Assembly (NCBI RefSeq): GCF_030013595.1
Contig: NZ_CP122768.1
Length of the DNA stretch: 64,000 bases
DNA from: Escherichia coli
GTDB taxonomy: Bacteria > Pseudomonadota > Gammaproteobacteria > Enterobacterales > Enterobacteriaceae
Reading direction: 5' to 3' (one strand)
Numbering within the stretch: the stretch's first letter is position 1; the number at the start of each line of letters is the position of its first letter. A program made the position numbers and the translations under genes. Positions 4,440 to 28,195 of this stretch are shown here, in pieces. Below the pieces are notes generated by a model. It saw nothing but the letters and a program-made list of their open reading frames with translations. It searched no databases and was not told the DNA's origin.

Positions 4440-5240
4440 TTAACGTAACGAGCGACTTTCCATCGCCTCGATGAGCACCGCATCGTGTTTCAGCGTTTGC
4501 CATGCATGGATGACTTCTGCCGGAAAATCAACGTGAACGATAAAATCTCGCCCGCGGGGACCGTAGCCATCGCTATCATCGCGTAAACGCGGCAGCTCGC
4601 CAGTGAGTAGTGAGAGATAACGCTCAACCGGCCATAATCCTTGCAACGGATTAACAAAGATTACACTGTCTGCGTTGTTTCCTAGCTGAGGAACGAATCC
4701 GGGATAACTTAACCAGCGTGGTGCATCGGGATTGTCCCCAGTCATACGGCGGAACGTCGCCATCGTGCGCCGCTGCATGGTGGGGTCCTGAACAACGATA
4801 GCCGTATGAACTCGTTCTACGGCCTGATTCAATAGCGCGATGCTAAAGCGTGCGTTTTCACCGCAGTTTGTTGACTGGTCTTCAATCCAGATTTTTTCAT
4901 GCGGAATGTGCCAGAACTGATGAGCGATATCCGCCAGGATGGTAGCTTCTGCTCTGCCAGTGGTGCGGATAGTGTTGTAGTGCGGATGCTGTGCGATGGC
5001 ACTATACAAAAAAGTTGTCGAGTGACCGATACCACCACTAATCAGTAGAGGAATTTGCTGATCGCGGGCAATCTTGCATGCCGCATCGATAGTTGGCATA
5101 ACCGCATTGCCTGCAAGGATCACGCAATCGGCCTGATACGGCATCTCACCGGAGAAATCATCCTGCGCCAGCCACTGACCGATAACATTTATGGCATCTA
5201 TGGTTGCCGGCGAAAGCGTCGGAAACGGGGTAATGTTCAT
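4440..5240 (-). CDS. ydcF: DUF218-family protein YdcF
   Basis: 266-aa ORF; position between aldA and hrpA matches K-12. Confidence 0.8.
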
Positions 5241-5454
5241 GGTTCCTCCTTATCGTTTCCTTAAGAATACTGCGTGAGATAATAATGAGAAGCGGAGCAC
5301 TCTGAAAGGAGGAAGTCGTATTTCCTTAACCGCTACTCCGCAAGCCTGACATATCTTTTAAGGAAATGCTGTAGATAAACATTATTCATCTTGCAGCAGA
5401 GAATTGTATTTTTCTGAATTCCTGAATTTTTGCCCTTACCGTTTTAGAATTAAT

Positions 5455-5485
5455 AAAAAACCCGGCGCTAAATGCTTACCGGGTT
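5455..5485 (-). terminator. rho-independent terminator downstream of hrpA
   Basis: Hairpin cccgg...ccggg followed on the minus strand by TTTTTTATT. Confidence 0.4.
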
Positions 5486-5511
5486 TTAGATTTATCAGGC
5501 AAATAGCAGTG

Positions 5512-8500
5512 TTAACCGCTAATCTGCTCCATCGCCTGCAAAATACGCTTATCTGAAATCGGATAAGGCGTACCAAGTTGTTGAGCGAAGTAACTAACGC
5601 GCAGCTCTTCTATCATCCAGCGGATCTCTTTCACGTCTTCATCCTCACGACGTGCGGGCGGCAGTTTGTTGATCCATTGCTGCCACGCCTGCTGGACGTT
5701 TTCGACTTTCAGCATCTGAGCACGGTCACGATGCGGATCAACCGCCAGTTTTTCCAGTCGTTTTTCAATCGCCTGCAAATAACGCAGCGTGTCGCCCAGC
5801 CGTTTAAAACCGTTGCCAGTGACAAAACCGCGATACACCAACCCGCCCATCTGCGCTTTGATGTCAGAAAGCCCCAGCGCCATAGTCATATCCACCCGCC
5901 CTTTCAGGCGTTTGTTGATATTGAAGACTGCAGTAAGGATTTGCTCGACCTGCTTCGCAATATCCACCACCGTGTCGTTCAGTTCAGCGCGGACTTTTTC
6001 ATGCAGCGCAGCAAAGCCTTCTTCCGTCCAGACCGGGCCACCATTGGCGTCGATCAGTTGATCCACACCGCAGGAGATACAGTCGTCGATCAGCTCCAGC
6101 ACTTTGCCATACGGGTTAAAGTACAGCCCCAGCTTGGCTTTGTTTGGCAACTTCTCATGCAAATATTTGATTGGCGAGGGAATATTCAGCAGCAGTAGAC
6201 GGCGAAGACCGTTCCACATTGCCTGCTTTTGTTCCAGCGGATTATCAAACAGTTTGATCGCCACGCTGTCGCGTTCATCCACTAGCGCTGGCCACGCCTT
6301 CACTTTATAGTTGCCACGCTTCTGTTCGTAGCTTTCCGGCAGCTGACCAAAACTCCAGATATGTAAGCCGCTCTGCTCGATACCGTCATCCGCCACCGCA
6401 GACAGCGTTTCCTGCACTTTGCCTTTCAGCGCATCTTTCAGATCTTGTAGAGAGCGCCCTTCTTTTAGCTTCTTGTTTTTGTCATCCACCACGCGGAAGG
6501 TGATTTTCAGGTGATCAGGCACCTGATCCCAGTGCCAGTCTTCGCGGTCAACGGTAACGCCGGTCATCCGCCGTAACTCGCGCTCAAGGCTGTCGAGCAA
6601 CGGTAACTCCAGCGGTGTGACGCGGCCTAAAAACGCTTCGGCGTAGTTTGGCGCGGGCACAAAATTACGGCGTACCGGTTTCGGCAACGATTTAATCAAT
6701 GCGATGATCAGTTCACGACGCAGGCCGGGGATTTGCCATTCAAACCCGCTCTCTTCTACCTGATCAAGCAGCGGCAGCGGAATATGCACGGTCACACCGT
6801 CCGCGTCCGCGCCTGGCTCAAACTGATAGCTCAAACGCAGCTTGAGATTGCCCTGATGCCAGAAGTTCGGATAATCCAGCTTGCTGATTTTTTCCGCCCC
6901 TTCTTTGATCAACATGCTCTTTTCAAAGTTGAGCAAATCAGGCGTTTCGCGGCTGACTTTTTTCCACCAGCTGTCGAAGTGACGTGCGGAGATTACATCG
7001 TGGCTGATGCGCTGGTCGTAGAACTCAAACAACGTTTCGTCATCAACCAGAATATCGCGGCGACGTGATTTGTGTTCCAGCTCTTCCACTTCGGCCCGCA
7101 GTTTCAGGTTTTCACGGAAGAATGCGTGACGCGTCTGCCAGTCACCTTCCACCAGCGCGTGGCGAATAAAGAGTTCACGACATAACGCCGGATCGATCTG
7201 GCTGTAGTTGACCTTACGCGCAGCAACAATCGGCAAACCATAAACAGTGACTTTTTCCGTTGCCATCACCGCGCCCTGCGCCCGTTCCCAGTGCGGTTCG
7301 CTGTAGGTGCGTTTAATCAAATGCTGAGCAACGGGTTCTACCCATTCAGGGTCGATACGTGCCGCAATGCGCCCCCACAGGCGGCTGGTTTCTACCAGTT
7401 CCGCCACCATTACCCATTTCGGCGGCTTTTTAAATAAGCCGGAACCGGGGAAAATGGAGAAACGCGCGTTACGTGCGCCGGTATATTCTTGTTTATCGGC
7501 ATCTTTCATGCCGATATGGGAAAGCAAACCGGTCAGTAAGGCGATGTGAATTTCGCGATACTCCGCCGGTTCGCTGTTAACCGGAATGCCAAGTTCTTTC
7601 ACTACCTGACGCAACTGGGTGTAGATATCCTGCCATTCGCGCACGCGCAGATAGTTGAGATAATCGGTACGACACAGGCGACGGAAGGCGTTAGAAGAAA
7701 GCGCCTTTTGCTGCTCGCCGAGATAATTCCACAGATTTACAAACGCGAGGAAGTCGGATTCTTTGTCGTGGAAGCGGCGATGTTTTTCGTCCGATGCCTG
7801 CTGTCTATCCATCGGACGCTCGCGCGGATCCTGAATGGAGAGCGCGGACGTGATAATCATCGCCTCACGCACGCAGCCATGTTTTTGCGCTTCCAGCACC
7901 ATACGCGCCAGACGTGGGTCGACAGGCAACTGCGAGAGCTGGCGACCGAGCGGCGTCAGTTTATAGGCGCTGGCCTGTTCATCCGTGGTGATCGCGCCCA
8001 GTTCTTCGAGCAGACGCACGCCATCCTGGATATTGCGTTTATCCGGTGCTTCTACAAACGGGAATGCGGCGATATCGCCCAACCCCAGCGCGGTCATCTG
8101 TAAAATAACCGAGGCCAGGTTGGTACGCAGAATCTCCGGATCGGTAAACTCCGGGCGCGAGAGGAAATCGTCTTCGGAATAGAGACGAATACAGATCCCT
8201 TCGGACACACGACCACAGCGGCCTTTACGCTGATTGGCAGACGCCTGCGAAATGGGCTCAATCGGCAAACGCTGCACTTTAGTGCGATAGCTGTAGCGGC
8301 TGATACGCGCCGTACCTGGGTCGATAACGTATTTAATCCCCGGTACGGTCAGCGACGTTTCCGCGACGTTGGTCGCCAGCACAATGCGCCGTCCACTGTG
8401 CGACTGGAACACGCGGTTCTGTTCGCTGTTCGAAAGCCGCGCATAAAGCGGCAAGATTTCGGTATGGCGTAAGTTCAGCTTGTTCAGCGCATCGGCGGTA

Positions 8501-10273: not shown

Positions 10274-13280
<3,007 letters not shown>

Positions 13281-13352
13281 CGCTGTATTATCACTGGTGG
13301 TAAAAAAATGTTCCCCAGGGATGCGTGAATTTTACATTTTCTCTATTTTCCT

Positions 13353-14249
13353 TCAGTAACAGCAGTAGCGAATAAAATAAAAAAATACCGGAGCGGTGAA
13401 AATTAATGAGTCAATCCTGTCAAGGAGTCCGCCATGTCCTGGTAATAGTTTTCCACTATCTTTAACACCAATATCTCGTTTGATGGCTGACATCACTACA
13501 TCGCCGCAAAAACCACTAATACCAATTAACAAACCCGCTAATAATGCCTGTAATGTATCTAGCGGTGTCAGCAACGGTCCAATAATCAGTGACGCAATCA
13601 TGGTGGTGATTACGCCGCCCATCAGACCTTCCAATGTTTTTCCCGGGCTGACTTTAGGGACCACTTTTCTTCTGCCGCAGGATTTTCCCCATAAATACTG
13701 TGCAATATCGTTTGACTCGGTTAATGCCAAAAGAAATAACACCAGTAACGCCCCGCCCTGGATATTTGTGGTTGGCAACATTAATAACCAGGCGGCATGA
13801 CTCAAGGCGAAAACGGTCATTATCCAGCCACAAAAAATGGCGCTCACGGTATGCAGAAAACCGGAGGGGTCACCCACTAAAACTCGCCAGGTGGCTAATA
13901 TCAGAAACCCAGCCAAAGGTATAAATAACAGAAACAGCTCAAAGCAATTAAAACCGATAAGCAAATAGTTAAGAGGAATACCCCAATATAACCAACGCGG
14001 AAAATGTACAGATATAAGCGTACAATATTCTTTCAATGCCAGAAAACTTATCAGCGCAAAAAACGTCAACGTCATCCAGCGTGGACCTGAAATCACCATT
14101 GAAAAACAAATGACGATGCCCCACCAGGTACGAATACGTAATGTAACTTCATCCCCTTTTCTCTCCGGTAACCGCCATACCAGAAAACGGTTTATCAGCG
14201 TTGCTAAAATTAACAACGCGAAAAGTGTTGCCAGAGATTTTTCCAGCAT
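13353..14249 (-). CDS. ynbB: CDP-diglyceride synthetase-family membrane protein
   Basis: 298-aa polytopic membrane protein; CdsA-like C-terminal signature. Confidence 0.8.
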   Translation of the reverse strand: MLEKSLATLFALLILATLINRFLVWRLPERKGDEVTLRIRTWWGIVICFSMVISGPRWMTLTFFALISFLALKEYCTLISVHFPRWLYWGIPLNYLLIGFNCFELFLLFIPLAGFLILATWRVLVGDPSGFLHTVSAIFCGWIMTVFALSHAAWLLMLPTTNIQGGALLVLFLLALTESNDIAQYLWGKSCGRRKVVPKVSPGKTLEGLMGGVITTMIASLIIGPLLTPLDTLQALLAGLLIGISGFCGDVVMSAIKRDIGVKDSGKLLPGHGGLLDRIDSLIFTAPVFFYFIRYCCY

Positions 14250-14854
14250 TATCTTTCAGCGCTCATAAGAAGCACACTCCGACAACGATTAATCGCAGTC
14301 CAGAGAAGCAGAATTGAAGTAATGCTCCATAAAAGATTATTCCATTGCATCCATTGTGGATAAATGGCAATGGCCAGCCCCCACAAACCAAATATTAACG
14401 CGCGATCGCTTTTGCCAAATGGACCGACATAACTACGAATACCGTTAATCGTCTGCGCGAGTAAACCGCAAAACTCGGTCAATATGGTGCAAAATAACAT
14501 GAGTATCACGAGTGATGCATTACTTTCAGGTAAAAATAAAAACGGTAAATAGAGCGCAATATCGGAAATAACATCGCCAGTCTCATTCAAAATCGCCCCA
14601 AGACGTGTTTGCTGATTGCACTCACGCGCCAACATGCCATCCAGCGCATTGAGTGCCATACGAATAAAAAGCACGATGGGCAATAGCAGAAACATGCCAG
14701 GATATGGCACCAACGCCAACAACAAACCGGTGAGAAGAGAAAGTGCCAAAGCGGCAAGTGTGATCTGATTTGCAGACACTTGCAGCTTATGAAGCCAAAA
14801 CATCGTCGGCCTTAACAGCGACTGAAAGAGCGGTTTTATCTGGTAGAGCGTCAT
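14249..14854 (-). CDS. ynbA: CDP-alcohol phosphatidyltransferase-family membrane protein
   Basis: Membrane protein with D-G-x2-A-R...G...D-x3-D type motif (ALDGMLAR...GDVISD); start ATG overlaps the ynbB stop. Confidence 0.8.
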   Translation of the reverse strand: MTLYQIKPLFQSLLRPTMFWLHKLQVSANQITLAALALSLLTGLLLALVPYPGMFLLLPIVLFIRMALNALDGMLARECNQQTRLGAILNETGDVISDIALYLPFLFLPESNASLVILMLFCTILTEFCGLLAQTINGIRSYVGPFGKSDRALIFGLWGLAIAIYPQWMQWNNLLWSITSILLLWTAINRCRSVLLMSAER

Positions 14855-15024
14855 TATCAATCCTTGATAATTCTGTTTGCGCTATGGTGCATCAATTCCC
14901 CTGACGGAGATATCGCAACACGCCGCTTCATTAAAAATTCAGAATATATCAAGGTATTGGGGACTCACCGTCAGGAATGATTATCCCCAATAAATCAAGT
15001 GGTTAAAAATTATTACGCTGTTAT

Positions 15025-17337
15025 TCAATACAACTCATCAAGTTTTCTCATCGCTTGTTCCCGTATTGCGCGCGTCTTACCGTTAAGCGCCAGCTGCCGA
15101 ACTAAATCCAGTTCAGGGTTAACAAGCTCTAACGCCAGCAAAGGATCACGTTTCAGCCTCGCCTTTAATACATCAACTGGAAAACGGGGATTATTCATCG
15201 CCACAATCCACCACTCGGGATCAATTTCTGCCGCCAGTACTGCAGGCGGTGTGTGGCGGTTGCTAAGTGCGCCGAACTTGAAAAATGTGAGATTGCTTTT
15301 CGCCAGTGTACTCCACCATATACGATCCGGTTGTTTTGCCAGTACATCCAGTTGTGCTAACGCATCGGGGTCTAGTGCATAATATACACGTAACGCTTCG
15401 TTAACCTGCGCACGGGAACTGTTTTCCTGCCTCAGAAAAAACTTCGCCAAAATATCATTGCGTGGCGTGTTTTGCTGTAATTCCTTGAGAACAACAGCGG
15501 GTAAATTATCCCAACTAATTAATGCACTCTCTAAAAAGTCCCAGCCTTCCGAACGTATCAGAGAGGTGGCATTTAATAGCATCTGGTCATCAACTTCACC
15601 GTGGCTAATCAGCTCAGACAAAATCATATCAGCGCTGGTTTCATATGCTGCAGAATCTGCTTTCGGATTATTTTTTCGATGCGATAAAGCGCGATGCCAA
15701 ATTTTTTGTTTCATCGCCGTACTCAGATACTGATTTTTCGCCAGATTACTCCACCCCGCAGGATCGTTGAAACGTGTCAATAACCGTTGTAAAGCGGCGT
15801 CAGAGTGAATTACCTGCATATCCTGACAGCAAAAATAGGCAGGAAATTTTTTCTCCATCTTTTTAACAAAATTAAACTGTAAGTTATCTGGCAATGCTAA
15901 AAATAACACACGTATTAGATCATCGTCATTCTCGAATTTTTGGTGTAAATATACTGCTATTTTGTCACTCTCTTGTGGCGTCATCCGCAACAATTGACCA
16001 TGGTGTTTCATCTCTGCCAGCTTTGACGCTAAGCTTGTGACAACATCGTTTGATGAATCGTTCGCCAACTGCATTGCCTGATTGTAGGTGAGTTGTCCTC
16101 CAGCACCGACCTGACGAATAGAGAAATCATCACTGCGGATATAGCCATCAATAATGGATTCGGGCAATAACCACGCATCTTTATAAAGCTCCTGAATGAT
16201 CATATCCCAATCTCTTTTCGCCAGAGTCATGACGATATCCAGAGGGAGATTTTCACGTAGCGCAAGATTCAACGGACCGACACCATCAGGTAGATGACTC
16301 ATTCGCGTCATTATTTCGACAGAGAGCGGTTCACGGTCGAGCAACCCCAGAACAACAGGCTGGTAACCCAATTGCTGATCGGTCAACTCCAGAATCTCAT
16401 TGTCAGGCATATATCTCGCCATACTTGCAATCGTTTGTCCATCATTGCTATTAATAAGTTGTTTGCGTAGGTTAGCTGAAATTCCTTTAAGCCTTGGGAG
16501 AGTTCGCATTACGGCAAGATCAAATGTCGCAATGTCTCGTCCTTCAAATGCAGCAACTTTGCCTTCATCCAGCATTTGCAATTCCTGCACTAACTCAGGA
16601 GAAGGCTTAGGGCGAAACAGCGCTTCTTTTTTCATCTGATTACAGACATTCCCTGCCATGCGAATATTGCTTCGCTTAAAAATTTCTTTCAGAGCATCTT
16701 CATCATTTATTAGGCCCCAATAATATGCATCAGGATTTATTATCGCCAGCGCTTTTTTGACATTTTCAGTGTCATTTTTGTCACTCGCACGGACCATGAA
16801 TTCACTATTTGTCGAAGACGCAACAACAGGTGCAATTATGTCATTGATAAATATCCCACGCGCATTAATACTCCCCTTAATCGTAGACGGATTATCGTAA
16901 TATGAGTCGATAAATACCAGTCCACTTGCATTTATCGAACCGGTAATTAACAGTGGTGAATCCGTAACTATATTCGTTGCCGTCACATCACCGAGAATAA
17001 CCCATGGATTAGAAAGAGAGAAAGTGGAAATATTACCTTTGACTGTCAAATTGCCAAGAACAATCAATTTTTGATTACTCTCTATATTACCTTCTACCAC
17101 TAAATCGCCACGATGCACTTTCCAGTCCGATGCAGATAAACCGAAGGGGACAAGATTCACGCTACTGTTGATAGCTTGTTCAACTTGTTGTTTATCTTCA
17201 GCGGTAGCCGCAGAAAAAAATGGTTCAATATCAACTGCATTTGCAACACATCGAAGTTCCGCCTGTACTGGAAGACTCAGCATAAACAGGGGAAGTAAAC
17301 CTATCCAGCTGCAAATCCTGGGCTTAAACATATGCAC
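15025..17337 (-). CDS. ydbD: large secreted/periplasmic protein YdbD
   Basis: 770-aa ORF with N-terminal signal peptide; position between ynbA and the IS200 copy; a start two codons downstream is also possible. Confidence 0.8.
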   Translation of the reverse strand: MHMFKPRICSWIGLLPLFMLSLPVQAELRCVANAVDIEPFFSAATAEDKQQVEQAINSSVNLVPFGLSASDWKVHRGDLVVEGNIESNQKLIVLGNLTVKGNISTFSLSNPWVILGDVTATNIVTDSPLLITGSINASGLVFIDSYYDNPSTIKGSINARGIFINDIIAPVVASSTNSEFMVRASDKNDTENVKKALAIINPDAYYWGLINDEDALKEIFKRSNIRMAGNVCNQMKKEALFRPKPSPELVQELQMLDEGKVAAFEGRDIATFDLAVMRTLPRLKGISANLRKQLINSNDGQTIASMARYMPDNEILELTDQQLGYQPVVLGLLDREPLSVEIMTRMSHLPDGVGPLNLALRENLPLDIVMTLAKRDWDMIIQELYKDAWLLPESIIDGYIRSDDFSIRQVGAGGQLTYNQAMQLANDSSNDVVTSLASKLAEMKHHGQLLRMTPQESDKIAVYLHQKFENDDDLIRVLFLALPDNLQFNFVKKMEKKFPAYFCCQDMQVIHSDAALQRLLTRFNDPAGWSNLAKNQYLSTAMKQKIWHRALSHRKNNPKADSAAYETSADMILSELISHGEVDDQMLLNATSLIRSEGWDFLESALISWDNLPAVVLKELQQNTPRNDILAKFFLRQENSSRAQVNEALRVYYALDPDALAQLDVLAKQPDRIWWSTLAKSNLTFFKFGALSNRHTPPAVLAAEIDPEWWIVAMNNPRFPVDVLKARLKRDPLLALELVNPELDLVRQLALNGKTRAIREQAMRKLDELY

Positions 17338-17359
17338 TCCATGCCATTAAAAAAGAATA

Positions 17360-18068
17360 AATATCCTCCGGCATAGCCGGAGGTTTTTCAAATGCGCCTG
17401 TAAGGCTCTGTTACCAGCCGCGCCCTAACAGGCGCATACGATCTGACATTTGCATTCAACTTCGTTACTTACGGCCCGTAAACGGGCTGCCCGGATATGG
17501 AATCGATAACTGCTCCCCCATTTTATCCTCTTCAAGCTGGTGCTTTATGTAGTCCTGTATCTTCGCCGTGTTCTTACCCACCGTATCGACATAGTACCCT
17601 CGGCACCAGAACTCCCTGTTTCTGTATTTGAATTTCAAATCCCCAAACTGCTCGTAAAGCATCAGACTGCTTTTCCCTTTCAGATATCCCATAAAGCCGG
17701 ATACGCTCATTTTGGGTGGGATTTCCACAAGCATATGGATATGATCTGCGCAGCACTCTGCTTCCAGAATCCGTACGCTTTTCCACTCACACAGCTTTCT
17801 CAAAATACTGCCTATCGCCCTACGCTTCTCTCCGTAAAACGCCAGTCTTCGGTATTTCGGCGCAAAAACTATGTGATATTTACAGTTCCAGCGGGTGTGC
17901 GCTAAGCTCTTTTCGTCCCCCATTGGGACCCCCTTTTGATTTCTTGTTTGACACTTGCAGTTGCCAGACCGCAAGGTGTTTTAACAAATCAAAAGGGGTT
18001 TTAATAACTGGCTCAAAGCTGAAAGCTTTCCGGAACCCCCAGCCTAGCTGGGGGTTTTCTGTGCACAA
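17360..18068 (-). mobile_element. IS200 insertion sequence (IS200/IS605 family), boundaries approximate
   Basis: Contains IS200-type TnpA; perfect palindrome aacccccagcctagctgggggtt (18036-18058) upstream of tnpA and a second inverted repeat (about 17388-17438) downstream, as expected for the structured, repeat-less ends of IS200. Confidence 0.6.
17465..17923 (-). CDS. tnpA: IS200 transposase TnpA (HUH/Y1 single-strand transposase)
   Basis: 152-aa product MGDEKSLAHTRWNCKYHIVFAPKYRR... with HUH motif (ADHIHML) and catalytic Tyr region; recalled IS200 TnpA sequence is near-identical. Confidence 0.9.
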   Translation of the reverse strand: MGDEKSLAHTRWNCKYHIVFAPKYRRLAFYGEKRRAIGSILRKLCEWKSVRILEAECCADHIHMLVEIPPKMSVSGFMGYLKGKSSLMLYEQFGDLKFKYRNREFWCRGYYVDTVGKNTAKIQDYIKHQLEEDKMGEQLSIPYPGSPFTGRK

Positions 18069-18072
18069 ATAA

Positions 18073-18103
18073 AAAACCGCAACCTGTATCAGCGTTGCGG
18101 TTT
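18073..18103 (-). terminator. rho-independent terminator downstream of paaY
   Basis: On the minus strand, stem aaccgcaac...gttgcggtt followed by TTTTTTATTT. Confidence 0.5.
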
Positions 18104-18145
18104 GTGTATCACATGCTAAAAATTAGAACGTCCAGCATCAGGACG

Positions 18146-18736
18146 TTACTGTTTCGGTCGCAGATTCTCATCAAATACCAGGCGCTGCCTGCCAGGTTCA
18201 ACTTCCCGCAATGGCTCGACTTGATGTAACGTCTGCTTACAGCGTGTCACCAGCACCTGGTACTCATGCGCACCCTGCTTTTTCCATGCCAACTCCTGCT
18301 CACTGAGTTCACGAATCGCTTTCGCCGGGCTGCCGACAATCAGGTAATTAGCTGGCATTTCTGCTTTGGCTTTCACAAATGCGGATGCGCCAACAATGCT
18401 GTTCTCGCCAATCACCGCACCGTCTATCACTACCGCGTTCATTCCCACTAATGCATTGCGGCGGATAATGCAGCCGTGAAGGATAGCGCTATGACCAATA
18501 TGTCCATCTTCTTCCACGACAGTATCCTGCTCGGGAAAACCGTGCATAACGCAATTATCCTGAATGTTCGCGCCATCTTTCACCACGATACGACCAAAAT
18601 CGCCACGCAGGCTGGCATTTGGCCCAACGTAAACACCCTTGCCGAGAATAACATCGCCGATCAATACCGCTGTCGGATGAACAAAACTCTCTTCTGGCAC
18701 AACCGGAGTCAGACCGTCTATCTGATAAATTGGCAT
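18146..18736 (-). CDS. paaY: hexapeptide-repeat (gamma-carbonic-anhydrase-like) protein PaaY
   Basis: 196-aa ORF with left-handed beta-helix hexapeptide repeats; recalled PaaY length and N-terminus ([11 protein letters not shown]) match. Confidence 0.85.
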
Positions 18737-18843
18737 AACGCGTCCTGTTCAATATTCAAGCCGCCAAAACGTTGAAAATACAGGCTTCCCGGCGCAGGCA
18801 GTTCACCGACCGAGGTTTCACCTTTTTCACTAACGAACGCTAA

Positions 18844-19077
18844 AGCAGCAGGCGCTACGCGCTGATAAAGTTTGCCGATAAAGGTTTGGTGGTCGCGCAA
18901 TATATTCGTAACCGTCGTCTCGATTTTTGTGCTGATGCGATTCGCCATGCCGCAGATGATGAAAAACTGGCAGGTATTGGCTTTCATTGGGGATTTTCCG
19001 ATCAGAGTCATTTTTCAACGGTATTTAAGCAACGCTTTGGGATGACGCCAGGCGAGTATCGACGTAAATTCCGCTAA
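18844..19077 (+). pseudogene. feaR: 3' remnant of AraC-family regulator feaR (C-terminal HTH only)
   Basis: In-frame stop at 18841; remaining frame encodes only the AraC-type second helix-turn-helix (IGFHWGFSDQSHFSTVFKQRFGMTPGEYRRKF); convergent with ydbL as in K-12. Confidence 0.6.
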
Positions 19078-19248
19078 CTAATTCGCGTTGCATGTACAGC
19101 AACGCGAATTAGTTAAAACAGATATTTGACTATGCATTTTTCAGGGCGAAAGGCAATTTGACAGGAATTTTTGAATATTCACCTTGTTTCCGGAAAATAG
19201 AATAATCGCCTTCTCCTGTAGCGTTATCCCGATATTGCGGTTTTGCTA

Positions 19249-19575
19249 TTAAAATTTTCGCACCCATTTACCGTTTATCCCTTGTACATATTCCCCCGGT
19301 TTAGCCCGAGCTACGAGCTTTTGCCCGGCGAGTTTCGCGATATCATCTACCGAGACATTATTTTGCTTTGCCAGTTGTTGGTAACTCGCTTTACGTTCGG
19401 CATTAATGTCGTTTACTAATTTCTCTGTTTCAGCATCTGTTTTCAGCGCAACCAGATAACCATAAAATGTTTCCCCTACCCGCCCCTGAGTTCTGGCTTC
19501 ATCCAGAGTCAATGCCATTACATTGCTGCTTACAAGCCCAACAAGAAACGCACAAAGAAGTAATGTTTTCTTCAT
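19249..19575 (-). CDS. ydbL: DUF1318-family periplasmic protein
   Basis: Signal peptide MMKKTLLLCAFLVGLVSSNVMA; start at internal Met giving 108 aa and ending 8 bp before the ynbE stop. Confidence 0.8.
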   Translation of the reverse strand: MKKTLLLCAFLVGLVSSNVMALTLDEARTQGRVGETFYGYLVALKTDAETEKLVNDINAERKASYQQLAKQNNVSVDDIAKLAGQKLVARAKPGEYVQGINGKWVRKF

Positions 19576-19582
19576 CATCGCC

Positions 19583-19768
19583 TCAGAAAAGATCGCTACG
19601 AGTCTCAAGCAGCTCTTCGACATCTTTGTCTGCCTTGATGATGATCTCATGCTCAATTTTAACGTTCATATTGATAGTGATCGGTTCCTTAGGTGCAGCG
19701 ACTTCAATGCGAGGCGTACAGCCAACCAGCATAAAAGATGACGTCAACGCAGCCAGTAAAATTTTCAT
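19583..19768 (-). CDS. ynbE: small lipoprotein
   Basis: 61-aa ORF with lipobox LVGC; overlaps the ydbH stop by 4 bp. Confidence 0.8.
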   Translation of the reverse strand: MKILLAALTSSFMLVGCTPRIEVAAPKEPITINMNVKIEHEIIIKADKDVEELLETRSDLF

Positions 19769-22404
19769 TGTTTTTCCTCACACTCTTTTCCTTGCGGACA
19801 GTCATTTCCCGGCAGACGTGCGTTCTGCTCCAACCATGCCTGGAGATTATCGCCAAAGCGTAAACTGCGCCACAGCGTAAAAATATTCTCTTCATGATGG
19901 TAATTAAGGTTTACCGTACCGCTTTTACCATCAACGCGACTGGTACCTGTAATGTTGGCCTGCATGGTTAATAAACCGAGATTATCTAAGTTAATTTTTG
20001 TCGATGAACGGCTAATTTCCATATAGCGCAACCAGTTAATTGCTGAACCCGCAGTCATATTATCTTTTACCACCGCATCAGCAGTGTCTTTATCCAGCCG
20101 CAAGGTCATTGGCCCACTATTTGCCAGCCAGCCATCTTTCACTATCCATTTTTCATTGTTTAGCCATAACGGCAATGCACCACTAAATGCCCCGGACATG
20201 GCGAATTGTTTCGGATTGACGGCGCTAACCAGTTCGCTGGATGAGAGATTATTCAGCCGCAACAGCGCCGGGTCATGTTGCGGCATGCGTAATTGTTTCA
20301 TCAGCACGTTACCGCCTAACACATCGACGCTAACATCAGTCAACAGCAATGGTTCTTCTTCTGTCCACGGATAGCGCCCTTGCAAATCAGCCGTAATATT
20401 TTTCGCTGTCACCAGATTAATCACTTCGGCAATTCGCAACGTAACGGGGCCGCGAGTCCCCAGATGCCAGGCTCCATCGGCAAAACGGAAAGGCAGGACA
20501 AAATCGACACCGTTAACCTGATTATCTGGCATCCAGGCACTACCGCCTTTCAACACGCCGTGCCCTCCCGCGCGGAATCCTTGTTCAGGCGCAGCAGAAA
20601 ATGCAACCTGAGCATACAGTTCACCATCGCGTAAGTTCATCTTCCAGTCGGGTGGCACCAGCGGCTGGAATACAGTCAGTGATTGTTTAGGCCACCAGGC
20701 GTTACCGCGCAGACGAATACCGTCCCAGCGACCATTTACCCGAACCGGGCCAATCTCACCAGCATGTAAATCGCCTTTAAAGAGGAAATACGTCGGATCG
20801 CGTCCATCGACGCTAAATTTTAAGGTTGATGGCGGTAACACACTGCCGCCAGTGAACAGCGTTTGCCCGGCGTCCAGTGACAGCGCGCCGCTAAAGGAGG
20901 GATGCTGTGCGTCACGTACCCAGACGACGGGCTTGTCGAGAATTAGTCGCGGCTTTTCTACCGTCATCGTACCGTATTGTAACTGGTCGAAACCGGTGGA
21001 GAGATCGGTCAGCGTAATCGTGCTGTCATGCCACTCACCCTTTCCTGCGACATCCCAGGTGGCATTCATCGGTGTAAAACTGCCTTTTCCCCAGTAGCGC
21101 CACTGCCAGCGGCCAGCGTCAGGGAGAAAATCATTCGCCAGTCCATCCATATGCAGCACGAAATCGCCCAGTTCATTTTCATGCGCCTGCAAAATGGCCT
21201 GCAAACGTCCGTCAACACCACGTTGGGTGACTTTTACACCCGCTAAAGGCCAGCGGATTTCATCGATGTCCAGCGAATCAATGACTCTTCCCTTTGAACG
21301 AAGTAACGCGCCAGGCTCAAAGGCCAGCGTTGGGTCAGTCAGACTTCCGCTTAGCTTCGCAGGTAAACGGGCATATAAAATGAGGTCCGCCTGTTTCGCT
21401 TCACCGGTCAGCTGCAGAGGCAGCTGGCTGTTATCCATGCTTAATTTTCCTGGGCCAAAATTAAGCACCGCGTTGCCTTTACCCGCTTGCCCCTGGGTCA
21501 GCACACTCAGTCGTCCGCTGACCAGAGCGTTCTCGAGCCCTGCCTGCCAGTTGTCGACTTTGACACCCAGTCTGCCACTCAAAGGAAAACCTGCATACGG
21601 CCAGCTCCAGCGACCATCGCTTACAGTCAATTGTTGGCGAGTAATTTGCCACGGCAAATCGAGCAACGGATCGCCATTATCCCGTGCCAGCACAATCAAT
21701 TGCCCGCTATTTTCCTGCCAGTCCAGCTCGGCATCCACCAGTGAAGGCTCCTGCGGCAAGTTTAACGTCGCAGTAGCATGACCACTTACCGGAAGTCCAT
21801 CCGGCACGAGCGGCATAGTAAATTCCCCCACCAGTTTTATCGGTGGCTGATTTTCAAACGCGGCGACATTCAGTTCGCTGACTGTAAGTTGTTGCCCTTT
21901 AAGCTGGCCTTGAAATTTAACTTTTTCGCCCTGATAACGCAGTTGCTGGATATCAGAGGTTAACGCGAGAGAGAGTTTTCCCTGCCACTCCTGCCAGGGA
22001 GAAAAAATCAGTTTATCGATATTGATCCAGGTGTTAGGCAACATGGCCTGCCACTGCGCGAGGGTTTTTGGAGCGGCAGGCGATTGCTCCGTCTGCGGCA
22101 ATTTCGCCAGACAAGCAGAATCAAGTTCTACCGTGCCGACGTTCAATAACCAGCGGCTCGGATGTGAAAGGCTGGCGTTGGTGATATGCGCAAGCTGACA
22201 ATCTCCCACCAGATAACGGAGATCGGGAATGATTAAACCTTTACGCGTAATGCGTGGGCTTTCATCTAATGCAATACGTGTCCCGAGCGGTAGCCAGATG
22301 CCCGCCAGCGTGGGAACCCACAAGCCGAGCGTCATCAGCAGCGTCAACGGCACAAGAATAATCAGTAATAACAGCGCGAGAACGGCTTTATATTTACCCA
22401 GCAT
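19765..22404 (-). CDS. ydbH: AsmA-like/DUF748-family large envelope protein
   Basis: 879-aa ORF with N-terminal TM anchor; ydbH-ynbE-ydbL operon arrangement. Confidence 0.85.
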   Translation of the reverse strand: MLGKYKAVLALLLLIILVPLTLLMTLGLWVPTLAGIWLPLGTRIALDESPRITRKGLIIPDLRYLVGDCQLAHITNASLSHPSRWLLNVGTVELDSACLAKLPQTEQSPAAPKTLAQWQAMLPNTWINIDKLIFSPWQEWQGKLSLALTSDIQQLRYQGEKVKFQGQLKGQQLTVSELNVAAFENQPPIKLVGEFTMPLVPDGLPVSGHATATLNLPQEPSLVDAELDWQENSGQLIVLARDNGDPLLDLPWQITRQQLTVSDGRWSWPYAGFPLSGRLGVKVDNWQAGLENALVSGRLSVLTQGQAGKGNAVLNFGPGKLSMDNSQLPLQLTGEAKQADLILYARLPAKLSGSLTDPTLAFEPGALLRSKGRVIDSLDIDEIRWPLAGVKVTQRGVDGRLQAILQAHENELGDFVLHMDGLANDFLPDAGRWQWRYWGKGSFTPMNATWDVAGKGEWHDSTITLTDLSTGFDQLQYGTMTVEKPRLILDKPVVWVRDAQHPSFSGALSLDAGQTLFTGGSVLPPSTLKFSVDGRDPTYFLFKGDLHAGEIGPVRVNGRWDGIRLRGNAWWPKQSLTVFQPLVPPDWKMNLRDGELYAQVAFSAAPEQGFRAGGHGVLKGGSAWMPDNQVNGVDFVLPFRFADGAWHLGTRGPVTLRIAEVINLVTAKNITADLQGRYPWTEEEPLLLTDVSVDVLGGNVLMKQLRMPQHDPALLRLNNLSSSELVSAVNPKQFAMSGAFSGALPLWLNNEKWIVKDGWLANSGPMTLRLDKDTADAVVKDNMTAGSAINWLRYMEISRSSTKINLDNLGLLTMQANITGTSRVDGKSGTVNLNYHHEENIFTLWRSLRFGDNLQAWLEQNARLPGNDCPQGKECEEKQ

Positions 22405-22611
22405 GGGTAGTTAATATCCTGATTTAGCGAAAAATTAAGCATTCAATACGGGTATTGTGGCATGTTTAACCGTTCAGTTGAAGGTTGCGCCTACACTAAG
22501 CATAGTTGTTGATGAATTTTTCAATATCGCCATAGCTTTCAATTATATTTGAAATTTTGTAAAATATTTTTAGTAGCTTAAATGTGATTCAACATCACTG
22601 GAGAAAGTCTT

Positions 22612-23601
22612 ATGAAACTCGCCGTTTATAGCACAAAACAGTACGACAAGAAGTACCTGCAACAGGTGAACGAGTCCTTTGGCTTTGAGCTGGAATTTTT
22701 TGACTTTCTGCTGACGGAAAAAACCGCTAAAACTGCCAATGGCTGCGAAGCGGTATGTATTTTCGTAAACGATGACGGCAGCCGCCCGGTGCTGGAAGAG
22801 CTGAAAAAGCACGGCGTTAAATATATCGCCCTGCGCTGTGCCGGTTTCAATAACGTCGACCTTGACGCGGCAAAAGAACTGGGGCTGAAAGTAGTCCGTG
22901 TTCCAGCCTATGATCCAGAAGCCGTTGCTGAACACGCCATCGGTATGATGATGACGCTGAACCGCCGTATTCATCGCGCGTATCAGCGTACTCGTGACGC
23001 CAACTTCTCTCTGGAAGGTCTGACCGGCTTTACTATGTATGGCAAAACGGCAGGCGTTATCGGTACCGGTAAAATCGGTGTGGCGATGCTGCGCATTCTG
23101 AAAGGTTTTGGTATGCGTCTGCTGGCGTTCGATCCGTATCCAAGTGCGGCGGCACTGGAACTCGGTGTGGAGTATGTCGATCTGCCAACCCTGTTCTCTG
23201 AATCAGACGTTATCTCTCTGCACTGCCCGCTGACACCGGAAAACTACCATCTGTTGAACGAAGCCGCCTTCGATCAGATGAAAAATGGCGTGATGATCGT
23301 CAATACCAGTCGCGGTGCATTGATTGATTCTCAGGCGGCAATTGAAGCGCTGAAAAATCAGAAAATTGGTTCGTTGGGTATGGACGTGTATGAGAACGAA
23401 CGCGATCTGTTCTTTGAAGACAAATCCAACGACGTGATCCAGGATGACGTGTTCCGTCGTCTGTCTGCCTGCCACAACGTGCTGTTTACCGGGCACCAGG
23501 CATTCCTGACAGCAGAAGCACTGACCAGTATTTCTCAGACTACGCTGCAAAACTTAAGCAATCTGGAAAAAGGCGAAACCTGCCCGAACGAACTGGTTTA
23601 A
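22612..23601 (+). CDS. ldhA: fermentative D-lactate dehydrogenase
   Basis: 329-aa D-isomer 2-hydroxyacid dehydrogenase with NAD-binding GVIGTGKIG motif; begins MKLAVYSTKQYDKKYLQQVN. Confidence 0.95.
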   Translation: MKLAVYSTKQYDKKYLQQVNESFGFELEFFDFLLTEKTAKTANGCEAVCIFVNDDGSRPVLEELKKHGVKYIALRCAGFNNVDLDAAKELGLKVVRVPAYDPEAVAEHAIGMMMTLNRRIHRAYQRTRDANFSLEGLTGFTMYGKTAGVIGTGKIGVAMLRILKGFGMRLLAFDPYPSAAALELGVEYVDLPTLFSESDVISLHCPLTPENYHLLNEAAFDQMKNGVMIVNTSRGALIDSQAAIEALKNQKIGSLGMDVYENERDLFFEDKSNDVIQDDVFRRLSACHNVLFTGHQAFLTAEALTSISQTTLQNLSNLEKGETCPNELV

Positions 23602-23607
23602 TCTTGC

Positions 23608-23630
23608 CGCTCCCCTGCATTCCAGGGGAG
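23608..23630 (+). terminator. hairpin terminator after ldhA
   Basis: gctcccctg-cattc-caggggagc perfect inverted repeat directly after the ldhA stop. Confidence 0.45.
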
Positions 23631-23711
23631 CTGATTCAGATAATCCCCAATGACCTTTCATCCTCTATTCTTAAAATAGTCCTGAGTCAGAAACTGTAAT
23701 TGAGAACCACA

Positions 23712-24134
23712 ATGAAGAAAGTAGCCGCGTTTGTTGCGCTAAGCCTGCTGATAGCGGGATGTGTAAGTAATGACAAAATTGCTGTAACCCCAGAACAGCT
23801 ACAGCATCATCGCTTTGTGCTGGAAAGCGTAAACGGTAAGCCCGTGACCAGCGATAAAAATCCGCCAGAAATCAGCTTTGGTGAAAAGATGATGATTTCC
23901 GGCAGCATGTGTAACCGCTTTAGCGGTGAAGGCAAACTGTCTAATGGTGAACTGACAGCCAAAGGGCTGGCAATGACCCGTATGATGTGCGCTAACCCGC
24001 AGCTTAATGAACTCGATAACACCATTAGCGAAATGCTGAAAGAAGGTGCACAAGTGGATCTGACCGCGAACCAGTTAACGCTGGCGACCGCGAAACAGAC
24101 ATTAACTTATAAGCTGGCGGATTTAATGAATTAA
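23712..24134 (+). CDS. hslJ: heat-shock lipoprotein HslJ (META domain)
   Basis: 140-aa product MKKVAAFVALSLLIAGC with lipobox. Confidence 0.85.
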   Translation: MKKVAAFVALSLLIAGCVSNDKIAVTPEQLQHHRFVLESVNGKPVTSDKNPPEISFGEKMMISGSMCNRFSGEGKLSNGELTAKGLAMTRMMCANPQLNELDNTISEMLKEGAQVDLTANQLTLATAKQTLTYKLADLMN

Positions 24135-24397
24135 TAGCTGCCACAGCTCCCGGCGGCAAGTGACTGTTCGCTACAGCGTTTGCCGTTGGGTAATGCACAC
24201 ATCCCAATCGCCGTACCATCCAGTTGACGGGCAACAGAAAGCGAACCGCCGATCATTGCACAACTTGCTTCTCCACTACTGGACATCGACGCTTTTAAAC
24301 CTGGCGCTACGTGCGCCGCAGTCGCCTGCTGAACAGGTTCACTACTACACGCCGACAATAATAAAGCGGCACACCCTACCCAAAACGCTGCTCGCAT
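24131..24397 (-). CDS. ydbJ: DUF333-family small secreted protein
   Basis: 88-aa ORF with signal peptide and lipobox-like LLSAC; convergent with hslJ. Confidence 0.7.
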   Translation of the reverse strand: MRAAFWVGCAALLLSACSSEPVQQATAAHVAPGLKASMSSSGEASCAMIGGSLSVARQLDGTAIGMCALPNGKRCSEQSLAAGSCGSY

Positions 24398-24670
24398 CTT
24401 TTCTTCCTCTGATCTTCAAGCCAAACGACACCGCCATAAATAATAGGCAGCACAGAGGGCGACGTCGAGAGCTGTCCTGCGCGTTGCCCCGCATTTTTAC
24501 TTTTTTATGGCTATTTTTTTGCCCTCTGTTTGATCAAAACATTCATTACGCTGATGTGGGGGACACAAAAGCGAAAATGCAGAAGAAAGCCATTTGCTAA
24601 AATTGAAGGATTACTACTGGGCGCGCAGCAATTTCGTGCGCCCCTCATTTGCGCAATGTAAGGGTGTCAT

Positions 24671-27600
24671 ATGATTACTATTGACGGTAATGGCGCGGTT
24701 GCTTCGGTGGCGTTTCGCACCAGTGAAGTTATCGCCATCTACCCTATTACCCCCAGTTCCACAATGGCAGAACAGGCTGATGCCTGGGCCGGAAACGGCT
24801 TGAAGAACGTTTGGGGAGACACACCACGCGTGGTTGAAATGCAGTCGGAAGCGGGTGCTATCGCTACCGTGCATGGCGCTTTGCAGACGGGTGCCCTTTC
24901 AACATCGTTTACGTCATCGCAGGGTTTGCTGCTGATGATCCCGACGCTGTACAAACTGGCAGGCGAACTGACGCCATTTGTCCTGCATGTAGCGGCACGT
25001 ACCGTTGCCACACATGCACTCTCTATTTTTGGCGATCATTCCGACGTTATGGCGGTGCGCCAGACGGGTTGCGCGATGTTGTGTGCGGCTAACGTCCAGG
25101 AAGCGCAAGACTTTGCTCTCATTTCGCACATCGCAACGCTGAAGAGCCGCGTGCCATTTATTCATTTCTTTGATGGTTTCCGCACGTCCCACGAAATCAA
25201 TAAAATTGTCCCGCTGGCCGATGACACTATTCTTGATCTCATGCCGCAGGCCGAAATTGATGCTCATCGCGCCCGGGCGCTCAACCCGGAACATCCGGTG
25301 ATCCGCGGTACGTCCGCCAATCCTGACACTTATTTCCAGTCTCGCGAAGCCACCAACCCGTGGTACAACGCAGTTTACGACCATGTTGAACAGGCGATGA
25401 ATGATTTCGCTGCCGCGACAGGTCGTCAGTATCAGCCGTTTGAGTATTACGGGCATCCGCAAGCGGAACGGGTGATTATCCTGATGGACTCTGCCATTGG
25501 CACCTGTGAAGAAGTCGTTGATGAATTGCTAACCCGTGGCGAAAAAGTCGGCGTGCTGAAAGTTCGCCTGTACCGTCCCTTCTCCGCCAAACACTTGCTA
25601 CAAGCTCTGCCGGGATCCGTACGCAGCGTGGCGGTACTGGACAGAACCAAAGAACCCGGTGCCCAGGCTGAACCGCTCTATCTGGATGTGATGACCGCAC
25701 TGGCAGAAGCCTTTAATAATGGCGAGCGCGAAACCCTGCCCCGTGTCATTGGTGGGCGCTATGGTCTTTCATCCAAAGAATTTGGCCCGGACTGTGTACT
25801 GGCGGTATTTGCCGAGCTCAACGCGGCTAAACCGAAAGCGCGCTTTACGGTTGGTATTTACGATGATGTGACCAATCTGTCACTGCCGTTGCCGGAAAAC
25901 ACCCTGCCAAACTCGGCGAAACTTGAAGCCTTGTTTTATGGCCTTGGTAGTGATGGCAGCGTTTCCGCGACCAAAAACAATATCAAGATTATCGGTAATT
26001 CCACGCCGTGGTACGCACAGGGCTATTTTGTTTACGACTCCAAAAAGGCGGGCGGCCTGACGGTTTCTCACCTTCGCGTGAGCGAGCAGCCGATTCGTTC
26101 CGCTTATCTGATTTCCCAGGCTGATTTTGTTGGCTGCCACCAGTTGCAGTTTATTGATAAATATCAGATGGCTGAACGTTTAAAACCTGGCGGCATTTTC
26201 CTGCTCAACACACCGTACAGCGCAGATGAAGTATGGTCGCGCTTGCCGCAGGAAGTTCAGGCCGTGTTAAACCAGAAAAAGGCGCGCTTCTATGTGATTA
26301 ACGCGGCGAAAATCGCCCGCGAATGTGGCCTGGCGGCCCGTATTAATACCGTCATGCAGATGGCTTTTTTCCATCTGACGCAAATTCTGCCTGGCGATAG
26401 CGCCCTCGCAGAATTGCAGGGTGCGATTGCCAAAAGTTACAGTAGCAAAGGTCAGGATCTGGTGGAGCGCAACTGGCAGGCTCTGGCGCTGGCGCGTGAA
26501 TCCGTAGAAGAAGTTCCGTTGCAGCCGGTTAATCCGCACAGCGCCAATCGACCGCCTGTGGTTTCCGATGCCGCTCCTGATTTCGTGAAAACCGTTACCG
26601 CGGCGATGCTCGCCGGGCTTGGTGATGCCCTCCCCGTTTCGGCGCTGCCGCCAGACGGCACCTGGCCGATGGGCACCACGCGCTGGGAAAAACGCAATAT
26701 CGCCGAAGAGATCCCCATCTGGAAAGAGGAACTCTGTACCCAATGTAACCACTGCGTCGCCGCTTGCCCACACTCAGCTATTCGCGCAAAAGTGGTACCG
26801 CCTGAAGCGATGGAAAACGCCCCTGCCAGCCTGCATTCGCTGGATGTGAAATCGCGTGATATGCGCGGGCAGAAATATGTCTTGCAGGTGGCACCGGAAG
26901 ATTGCACCGGTTGTAACCTGTGCGTCGAAGTTTGCCCGGCGAAAGACCGTCAGAATCCAGAGATTAAAGCCATCAATATGATGTCGCGGCTGGAACATGT
27001 CGAAGAAGAGAAAATCAATTACGATTTCTTCCTCAACCTGCCAGAAATCGACCGTAGCAAACTGGAACGTATTGATATTCGTACATCGCAGCTGATTACA
27101 CCGCTGTTTGAATATTCCGGTGCTTGCTCCGGTTGTGGCGAGACGCCGTATATTAAATTGCTGACTCAGCTCTATGGCGACCGGATGTTGATCGCTAACG
27201 CCACCGGCTGTTCTTCAATTTATGGCGGTAACCTGCCCTCTACACCGTATACCACCGATACCAACGGTCGTGGACCGGCATGGGCGAACTCGCTGTTTGA
27301 AGATAACGCCGAATTTGGCCTTGGTTTCCGCCTGACGGTCGATCAACACCGTGTCCGCGTGCTGCGTCTGCTGGATCAATTTGCCGATAAAATCCCGGCG
27401 GAATTACTAACTGCGTTGAAATCAGACGCCAAGCCAGAGGTTCGTCGTGAACAGGTTGCAGCTTTACGCCAGCAACTCAACGATGTTGCCGAAGCACATG
27501 AACTGCTACGTGACGCAGATGCACTGGTAGAAAAATCAATCTGGCTGATTGGTGGCGACGGCTGGGCTTACGATATCGGCTTTGGCGGTCTGGATCATGT

Positions 27601-28195
27601 ATTGAGTTTGACCGAAAACGTCAACATTCTGGTGCTGGATACGCAATGCTATTCCAATACCGGTGGTCAGGCGTCGAAAGCGACACCGCTGGGTGCAGTA
27701 ACTAAGTTTGGCGAGCATGGCAAACGTAAAGCGCGTAAAGATCTTGGCGTCAGTATGATGATGTACGGTCATGTTTATGTGGCGCAGATTTCTCTCGGCG
27801 CGCAGCTCAACCAGACGGTGAAAGCGATTCAGGAAGCGGAAGCGTATCCGGGGCCATCGCTGATCATCGCTTATAGCCCGTGTGAAGAGCATGGTTACGA
27901 TCTGGCACTCAGCCACGATCAGATGCGCCAACTCACTGCCACCGGCTTCTGGCCGCTATATCGCTTCGATCCACGTCGAGCCGATGAAGGCAAACTGCCG
28001 CTGGCACTGGATTCACGCCCGCCGTCAGAAGCACTGGAAGAAACGTTACTTCATGAGCAACGTTTCCGTCGTCTGAATTCGCAGCAGCCAGAAGTGGCAG
28101 AACAGTTATGGAAAGATGCTGCAGCTGATTTGCAAAAACGCTATGACTTCCTGGCACAAATGGCCGGAAAAGCGGAAAAAAGCAACACCGATTAA
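24671..28195 (+). CDS. pfo: pyruvate:flavodoxin/ferredoxin oxidoreductase
   Basis: 1174-aa ORF; two 4Fe-4S ferredoxin Cys clusters (CTQCNHCVAACP, CTGCNLCVEVCP) and TPP-binding region (GGDGWAYDIG). Confidence 0.95.
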   Translation: MITIDGNGAVASVAFRTSEVIAIYPITPSSTMAEQADAWAGNGLKNVWGDTPRVVEMQSEAGAIATVHGALQTGALSTSFTSSQGLLLMIPTLYKLAGELTPFVLHVAARTVATHALSIFGDHSDVMAVRQTGCAMLCAANVQEAQDFALISHIATLKSRVPFIHFFDGFRTSHEINKIVPLADDTILDLMPQAEIDAHRARALNPEHPVIRGTSANPDTYFQSREATNPWYNAVYDHVEQAMNDFAAATGRQYQPFEYYGHPQAERVIILMDSAIGTCEEVVDELLTRGEKVGVLKVRLYRPFSAKHLLQALPGSVRSVAVLDRTKEPGAQAEPLYLDVMTALAEAFNNGERETLPRVIGGRYGLSSKEFGPDCVLAVFAELNAAKPKARFTVGIYDDVTNLSLPLPENTLPNSAKLEALFYGLGSDGSVSATKNNIKIIGNSTPWYAQGYFVYDSKKAGGLTVSHLRVSEQPIRSAYLISQADFVGCHQLQFIDKYQMAERLKPGGIFLLNTPYSADEVWSRLPQEVQAVLNQKKARFYVINAAKIARECGLAARINTVMQMAFFHLTQILPGDSALAELQGAIAKSYSSKGQDLVERNWQALALARESVEEVPLQPVNPHSANRPPVVSDAAPDFVKTVTAAMLAGLGDALPVSALPPDGTWPMGTTRWEKRNIAEEIPIWKEELCTQCNHCVAACPHSAIRAKVVPPEAMENAPASLHSLDVKSRDMRGQKYVLQVAPEDCTGCNLCVEVCPAKDRQNPEIKAINMMSRLEHVEEEKINYDFFLNLPEIDRSKLERIDIRTSQLITPLFEYSGACSGCGETPYIKLLTQLYGDRMLIANATGCSSIYGGNLPSTPYTTDTNGRGPAWANSLFEDNAEFGLGFRLTVDQHRVRVLRLLDQFADKIPAELLTALKSDAKPEVRREQVAALRQQLNDVAEAHELLRDADALVEKSIWLIGGDGWAYDIGFGGLDHVLSLTENVNILVLDTQCYSNTGGQASKATPLGAVTKFGEHGKRKARKDLGVSMMMYGHVYVAQISLGAQLNQTVKAIQEAEAYPGPSLIIAYSPCEEHGYDLALSHDQMRQLTATGFWPLYRFDPRRADEGKLPLALDSRPPSEALEETLLHEQRFRRLNSQQPEVAEQLWKDAAADLQKRYDFLAQMAGKAEKSNTD

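Follow-up and report, generated by a model that had tools for sequence, protein, structure and literature searches.

What event removed the phenylethylamine and phenylacetate genes from this E. coli chromosome, is the resulting arrangement particular to the strain, and does anything left at the locus still function? The gene order here in K-12 is hslJ-ldhA-ydbH-ynbE-ydbL-feaR-feaB-tynA-paaZ-paaA..K-paaX-paaY-ydbA-pdxI-ydbD-ynbA-D, and the window, by which we mean the whole 64,000-nucleotide stretch of DNA analysed, carries this chromosomal locus in the orientation reverse to that of K-12. A sequence-only reading had seen in it a C-terminal helix-turn-helix (HTH) remnant of the AraC-family regulator gene feaR abutting an intact paaY, the genes between them being absent relative to K-12. 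Alignment of window positions 12001-25000 with K-12 NC_000913.3 positions 1,441,000-1,480,000 (locus L001) by blastn, a check which that reading had proposed, located the junction between positions 18869 and 18870 and returned four collinear blocks:

Window 12475-17361: block 1, corresponding to K-12 ynbC through ydbD
Window 18071-18131: block 2, 61 nt from the 3' end of ydbA
Window 18145-18869: block 3, 725 bp at 98.3% identity to L001 24063-23339, comprising paaY and the last 152 nt of paaX
Window 18867-24455: block 4, 5,589 bp at 98.1% identity, from the last ~210 nt of feaR through hslJ

The 725-bp and 5,589-bp matches to K-12 are well above chance level, and the features at and around the junction are as follows:

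18146-18736, minus strand: paaY, an intact 196-codon open reading frame (ORF) for a hexapeptide-repeat protein
18718-18869, minus strand: paaX 3' remnant, the last ~50 codons and the stop; a pseudogene fragment
18867-18872, with the break between 18869 and 18870, no strand: deletion junction, reading GCTGATAAA up to the break and GTTTGCCGAT after it, as established by comparison with K-12 and a paa+ strain and by comparison of carriers
18870-19077, plus strand: feaR 3' remnant, FeaR residues 234-301 and the stop; a pseudogene fragment
19075-19115, no strand: 17-bp perfect inverted repeat between the convergent feaR and ydbL stops (MFE -31.7 kcal/mol, z = -6.6)
19249-19575, minus strand: ydbL, a conserved core gene and the boundary of the variable region on the feaR side

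The whole of 18737-19077 had previously been read as feaR. The K-12 alignment rules this out: the assignment holds for the 208 nt at 18870-19077, whereas the left 133 nt (18737-18869) come from paaX, which lies on the minus strand here. Contrary to the earlier reading, the feaR fragment and paaY are not adjacent, since both the alignment and the PGAP annotation place the paaX 3' remnant between the two. In NZ_CM149870.1, a record that matches the window at 100% identity in the 1.2 kb compared, PGAP calls paaY, a partial PaaX and a partial HTH protein; the labels for the two fragments are 'PaaX, incomplete, missing N-terminus' (window 18718-18870) and 'helix-turn-helix domain-containing protein, incomplete, missing N-terminus' (window 18871-19077).

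That the right-hand fragment is a C-terminal HTH remnant of feaR was borne out. Window positions 18871-19074 translate to 68 amino acids that are 100% identical to residues 234-301 of K-12 FeaR and are followed by a TAA stop at 19075-19077, and the 208 nt share 97% identity with K-12, establishing descent from feaR. The fragment covers positions 21-80 of the 80-position Pfam HTH_18 profile, and also matches HTH_AraC, whereas residues 219-299 of K-12 FeaR cover positions 1-80; the AraC_binding_2 domain, found at residues 12-185 of K-12 FeaR, is absent from the remnant. Of the AraC-type DNA-binding domain this leaves only the second half, without the first helix-turn-helix. By the K-12 alignment the codons left number 68-69 rather than the ~75 first estimated, and the in-frame stop reported at 18841 does exist in that frame (18841-18843) but sits in paaX-derived DNA that is being read on its non-coding strand, not in feaR. 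The frame is closed there, no start is possible before the TTG at 18886, and no promoter-like site was found on the plus strand upstream. We considered the remnant as a mini HTH gene and rejected this, as it has no ATG and no promoter-like site and its domain is incomplete.

The paaX remnant overlaps the start of paaY by 19 nt, the same overlap as in K-12, and measures 152 nt with and 133 nt without it. Its translation is the C-terminus of PaaX (YQRVAPAAL...CQFIR); of the full 316 amino acids of this GntR-type repressor of the paa operons, the N-terminal ~266 codons are missing and, with them, the N-terminal winged-helix DNA-binding domain. From their content, neither the feaR nor the paaX stub would be able to encode a working regulator. 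A chimeric ORF of 97 codons (18718-19011, minus strand) runs antisense through the feaR stub and then in frame into the PaaX C-terminus, terminating at the stop of native paaX, in the overlap with the start of paaY. All 10 carriers of the junction compared below keep this frame open, and it has neither a Pfam match nor a recognisable ribosome-binding site.

Relative to K-12, the window lacks 17,749 bp (NC_000913.3 1,446,589-1,464,337; L001 5590-23338), the breakpoints falling at L001 5589/5590 and at 23338/23339, with K-12 paaX ending at 23490. The segment contains feaR codons 1-233, feaB, tynA, paaZ, paaABCDEFGHIJK and paaX codons 1 to ~266, so that the earlier list of missing genes stands for the 5' part of feaR, feaB, tynA, paaZ and paaA-K but not for paaX, which was lost only in part. 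As feaR and paaX are both cut within their reading frames, the short form derives from the long form, and the truncated ORFs on both sides show the arrangement to be a deletion rather than an ancestral absence. The converse, that the short form is ancestral and K-12 gained the cluster by insertion, or else that the junction is an assembly artefact, has nothing specific in its favour beyond the flanking of the paa region by core genes and its island-like appearance in pan-genome plots in a passage of PMC4951805. Flanking genes truncated within their reading frames, with stubs ~98-100% identical to the full-length genes, form a pattern that only deletion gives, and the junction recurs in 258 independently assembled complete genomes; we consider the probability of either idea to be negligible.

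On the window plus strand, the parental sequences are GATAAA followed across the breakpoint by TGTTGATAC on the paaX side and CCGAAT followed by GTTTGCC on the feaR side, and both are the same in K-12 and in the unrelated paa+ strain 266917_2. The direct hexamer AATGTT is thus present at both parental breakpoints, and the junction, in which GATAAA is joined to GTTTGCC, reads AA.GTT, so that one T of the hexamer is lost. A search for an IS element or a long repeat at the junction found neither, the nearest IS being an IS200-type element at 17358-18067, beyond paaY. Illegitimate deletion associated with microhomology, either imprecise by one base or followed by a later loss of 1 nt, is plausible but not proven, because one T is missing compared with the product of an exact crossover inside the AATGTT repeat.

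The sequence-only reading had implied that the arrangement is distinctive and had proposed a survey of whether the junction is lineage-typical. We surveyed 5,426 complete E. coli genomes with a 1.2-kb query, counting one contiguous place covering at least 80% of it as presence of the junction. This revealed the junction in 258 genomes (~5%), while in most of the others the two halves of the query map to two separate places; the junction is common and lineage-typical, and its supposed distinctiveness is unsupported. Carriers come from human, pig, dog, bird, cattle and wastewater sources, and include the reference enteroaggregative strain 042 (NC_017626.1), in which PGAP calls both stubs partial pseudogenes. 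The genome paper of 042 places it in group D with UMN026 (PMC2808357); neither the locus nor the phenotype is mentioned there, every 'pAA' match in the text referring to the plasmid.

We compared the window at base level with nine further carriers spanning the identity range (042, EC0585, IMT16316, Res13-Lact-PER13-34, 18KM2445, GMF054, 2012C-4221, C4 and A10). The junction 20-mer, CGCTGATAAA followed across the break by GTTTGCCGAT, is identical in all of them (10/10), and the 932-bp block from paaY to the feaR stop contains 37 polymorphic sites and no indels. That the flanks are diverged and mosaic while the junction, irregular missing T included, is the same throughout indicates a single origin with later recombination, and not recurrence. 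The window itself differs from the nine other carriers at four third-codon positions of the feaR stub (18891, 18933, 18975 and 19002), the first of them 21 nt from the junction, and from 042 at 6 of the 208 stub positions, while the left side of its junction, paaY and the paaX stub, is identical to that of 042. The differences across 18870-19250 set against this 042-identical left side imply a recombination breakpoint that would lie very near the junction.

The same data can be asked whether the junction instead arose repeatedly and independently in different lineages, the site being a deletion hotspot. The carriers are diverse and their flanks up to ~2% different, a short direct repeat contains the breakpoints, feaR is broken only 41 nt away in a second, independent deletion allele, and the four variants on the right flank of the window are unseen in the other carriers examined. 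Repeated slippage, however, would not be expected to produce the same loss of one T each time, yet the junction is base-identical in all 10 carriers; homologous recombination in E. coli normally yields mosaic flanks, and the window-type flank is limited to two near-identical pig isolates. We accordingly give recurrence very little credence. Taken together, our analysis makes us highly confident that the locus is the scar of a single, old, illegitimate 17.7-kb deletion of phenylethylamine and phenylacetate genes that left dead feaR and paaX stubs and orphaned paaY. An ancestor with the K-12-type arrangement ydbL-feaR-feaB-tynA-paaZ-paaABCDEFGHIJK-paaX-paaY lost the 17,749 bp between AATGTT in feaR and the directly repeated AATGTT in paaX, probably through slipped or microhomology-associated joining that was imprecise by one T. 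The outcome is two head-to-head dead stubs, the 3' ends of paaX (minus strand) and feaR (plus strand), beside an intact paaY. This allele appears then to have persisted and spread within E. coli, and homologous recombination around the one original event would account for carriers whose flanks differ by 1-2% and are mosaic while their junction is identical.

Genes of the pathway were found nowhere else in the window, in the two genomes identical to it over the stretch compared or in the other carriers sampled, in agreement with the absence of paa, tynA and feaB first described. The K-12 17.7-kb segment has no blastn match in the 64-kb window. A chimeric megablast query combining the junction segment with 400-nt pieces of feaB, tynA, paaA and paaK found a single place per chromosome, the junction, and none of the four genes elsewhere in the 60 best carriers of 258, which include two genomes 100% identical to the window over the junction segment (1.2-2.0 kb compared). 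A second chimeric query, with 1.2 kb of paaA-paaB at blastn sensitivity (~65-70% identity), likewise gave a single place per chromosome and no paaA-paaB elsewhere in the 25 best carriers. Plasmid places for the 17.7-kb segment number only 4 in the whole collection. Loss of the pathway thus appears well supported at the gene level: judged by gene content, carriers would be unable to convert phenylethylamine to phenylacetate, as TynA and FeaB are absent, or to degrade phenylacetate, as PaaK, PaaABCDE, PaaG, PaaZ and PaaFHJ are absent.

The gene that survived next to the scar is paaY, which had been described as intact but orphaned, and this description holds. The encoded protein is identical to K-12 PaaY (b1400) at 191 of 196 amino acids, with 5 substitutions and no internal stop, and matches Pfam Hexapep (2.5e-14), making it a full-length ortholog; its K-12 context is lost, the 5' part of paaX, the region upstream of it and paaZ/A-K all being deleted. 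PaaY is annotated in K-12 as a thioesterase for 2-hydroxycyclohepta-1,4,6-triene-1-carboxyl-CoA, a by-product of the very pathway deleted here, and paaXY is an auto-regulated operon according to work cited in a passage of PMC4640556. No consensus sigma-70 promoter was found on the minus strand between ydbL and paaY. Read-through from ydbH-ynbE-ydbL to paaY would have to cross the hairpin at 19075-19115; this inverted repeat is native to the locus, being present also in K-12, and because it lacks a T-run it was not called an intrinsic terminator.

Full-length paaY is present in all 10 carriers sequenced through, and the paaY gene symbol appears in 60 of 60 best carriers listed, of 258. Its polymorphism among the 10 carriers comprises 15 synonymous sites and 10 sites in 9 amino-acid-changing codons, against a neutral expectation of ~23% synonymous (136/588 sites), and pairwise pN/pS ranges from 0.15 to 0.37. 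When a clustered tract of strain C4 that looks imported is left out, the private changes are 6 nonsynonymous and 3 synonymous, an approximately neutral ratio in small numbers. The feaR stub in the same carriers has 9 variable sites, 8 of them at third positions and 7 synonymous, and at least 40 genomes have an intact feaR that matches the stub allele of the window at 100% identity over 380 bp. As the stub allele is common to intact feaR genes, its synonymous bias would be inherited or recombined from functional alleles and is uninformative on selection in carriers; and as the apparent constraint on paaY is mirrored in this dead stub, synonymous bias is not informative on paaY function either.

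These observations bear on whether selection keeps orphan paaY for a paa-independent role; PaaY might, for instance, act as a promiscuous acyl-CoA thioesterase, with read-through from ydbH-ynbE-ydbL providing its expression. Its full length in every carrier sequenced through and its intact annotation in all 60 listed would fit such a role, as would the overall synonymous bias, an AGGA Shine-Dalgarno-like motif that paaY has kept, and the chimeric ORF that stays open up to the paaY start. The certainly dead feaR stub, however, has a like bias (7/9 sites) in an allele common to intact genes, the private changes in paaY lean to nonsynonymous, and the chimeric ORF has neither a Pfam match nor a recognisable ribosome-binding site. 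The native promoter is lost, with no consensus promoter upstream and the 17-bp hairpin standing between ydbL and paaY, and an independent deletion allele truncates paaY in 564 genomes, which shows the gene to be dispensable in E. coli. We consider selection for such a role highly improbable, and hold the same strong doubt about its most explicit form, in which PaaY would be a general acyl-CoA thioesterase whose gene is transcribed by read-through from the phospholipid-transport operon ydbH-ynbE-ydbL and kept in translational coupling by the chimeric antisense-feaR::paaX ORF. In the sequence analysis of 10 carriers we found no evidence for a function of either orphan paaY or the HTH stub. Since its only known substrate comes from the deleted pathway, its native promoter is gone and its private changes look neutral, paaY is most likely an undecayed passenger.

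The region beyond paaY has a history of its own. An IS200/IS605-family element at 17358-18067 (tnpA 17465-17974, minus strand) sits where 042 and K-12 have pdxI (ydbC, pyridoxine 4-dehydrogenase), ~1,050 bp including all of pdxI being replaced by the ~710-bp element. IS200 lies between ydbD and pdxI in strain 405 and between pdxI and paaY in KE55, and the single copy of the window has the outer junctions of these two copies, which suggests that pdxI may have been lost by recombination between two flanking IS200 copies. The full IS200/paa arrangement occurs in only two genomes of the collection, HCP5S3_I2 and LCP30S3_I5, both UK pig isolates. The large autotransporter gene ydbA and ynbG are absent from the window; 61 nt of the ydbA 3' end (K-12 locus 33006-33066) and a 13-nt filler are all that lies at 18071-18144, between the IS200 element and the paaY stop. 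The same loss of ydbA is seen in 042, whereas strain AVS0533 keeps a full-length autotransporter beside a paaY stub. The ydbD-ynbA region (14100-17357) is only ~96% identical to 042 and K-12, while paaY through ydbH is 99.5% identical to 042, which indicates a probable mosaic origin of this chromosomal segment, with the step in divergence falling at the IS200 element. Further along, nifJ (pyruvate:flavodoxin oxidoreductase; 24671-28195, plus strand) is an intact ORF of 1,174 codons in the window. In NZ_CM149870.1 nifJ is annotated as an incomplete pseudogene, and a 1-nt indel in 17200-18250 also separates that record from the window; these differences are probably assembly indel errors in the record.

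The window strain and ~5% of sequenced E. coli, 042 included, are predicted to be unable to use 2-phenylethylamine or phenylacetate via the TynA-FeaB-Paa route, which would be relevant to niche use in the gut and to metabolic models, and to little beyond strain characterisation. The junction 20-mer CGCTGATAAAGTTTGCCGAT provides a handy lineage marker. The locus also offers a caution, as the feaR stub is a certain pseudogene with almost only synonymous polymorphism: since this bias comes from functional alleles, intactness or a low dN/dS of orphan paaY should not be taken as evidence of function. The allele is already annotated, common and lineage-typical, an ordinary polymorphism at a locus known for repeated loss.

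How the allele relates to others at the locus can be seen from the collection as a whole. The 17.7-kb segment (at least 80% of it) is carried by only 3,098 of the 5,426 genomes, and 1,512 have no match to it whatever; at least four other deletion alleles exist here, making at least five in all between the same core genes, a clear case of repeated, independent gene loss. Closest to the window are 042 and the 257 other complete genomes with the same junction and the same trio of intact paaY, partial paaX and partial HTH protein, with ydbA likewise missing; in 042, however, pdxI is still present between paaY and ydbD, the place taken in the window by the IS200-type element. A paaY/feaR allele represented by strain AVS0533 (positions 5002-5580 of locus L003, from NZ_CP124343.1), to which the 90-95% identity band of the junction survey with its 564 genomes corresponds, resembles the window in having lost the same catabolic genes, in retaining a C-terminal HTH stub of feaR beside ydbL, and in a join that has no IS and only a short overlap, here of 4 nt. 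It is nevertheless an independent event of 18,091 bp: its feaR stub is 252 nt, 41 nt longer, its other breakpoint lies inside paaY (of which the last 329 nt are left), it has no paaX, and it keeps full-length ydbA. The two deletions are unrelated, yet their feaR breakpoints are only 41 nt apart; this may be chance, or there may be a constraint that protects the 3' end of ydbL from disturbance. The IS-bounded alleles of REL606, S1-INA-02-A and Res13-Lact-PEB20-37-A have, like the window, wholly or partly lost the block from feaR to paaY between ydbL and ynbA-D. Unlike the window, REL606 has an IS3 at the breakpoint and keeps feaR, feaB and most of tynA, and the other two carry two different IS1-bounded deletions reaching into ynbA or ynbC.

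Passages of three published studies deal with the same locus and the same flanking core genes, and describe a cluster that is variably present, lineage-associated and repeatedly deleted. A passage of PMC4951805 calls the interval from ydbL to ynbC a 'region of genomic heterogeneity' and describes several independent paa deletions there, and in a passage of PMC5422975 paa is missing from the one phylogroup B2 genome and the one phylogroup E genome of a strain panel. According to a passage of PMC4640556, 38% of faecal isolates have tynA, against 7% of UPEC and 0% of O157:H7 isolates, and 33 kb are missing in CFT073. To what is given in these passages of PMC4951805, PMC5422975 and PMC4640556, in which both are absent, the present analysis adds the junction at base level and its frequency among complete genomes.
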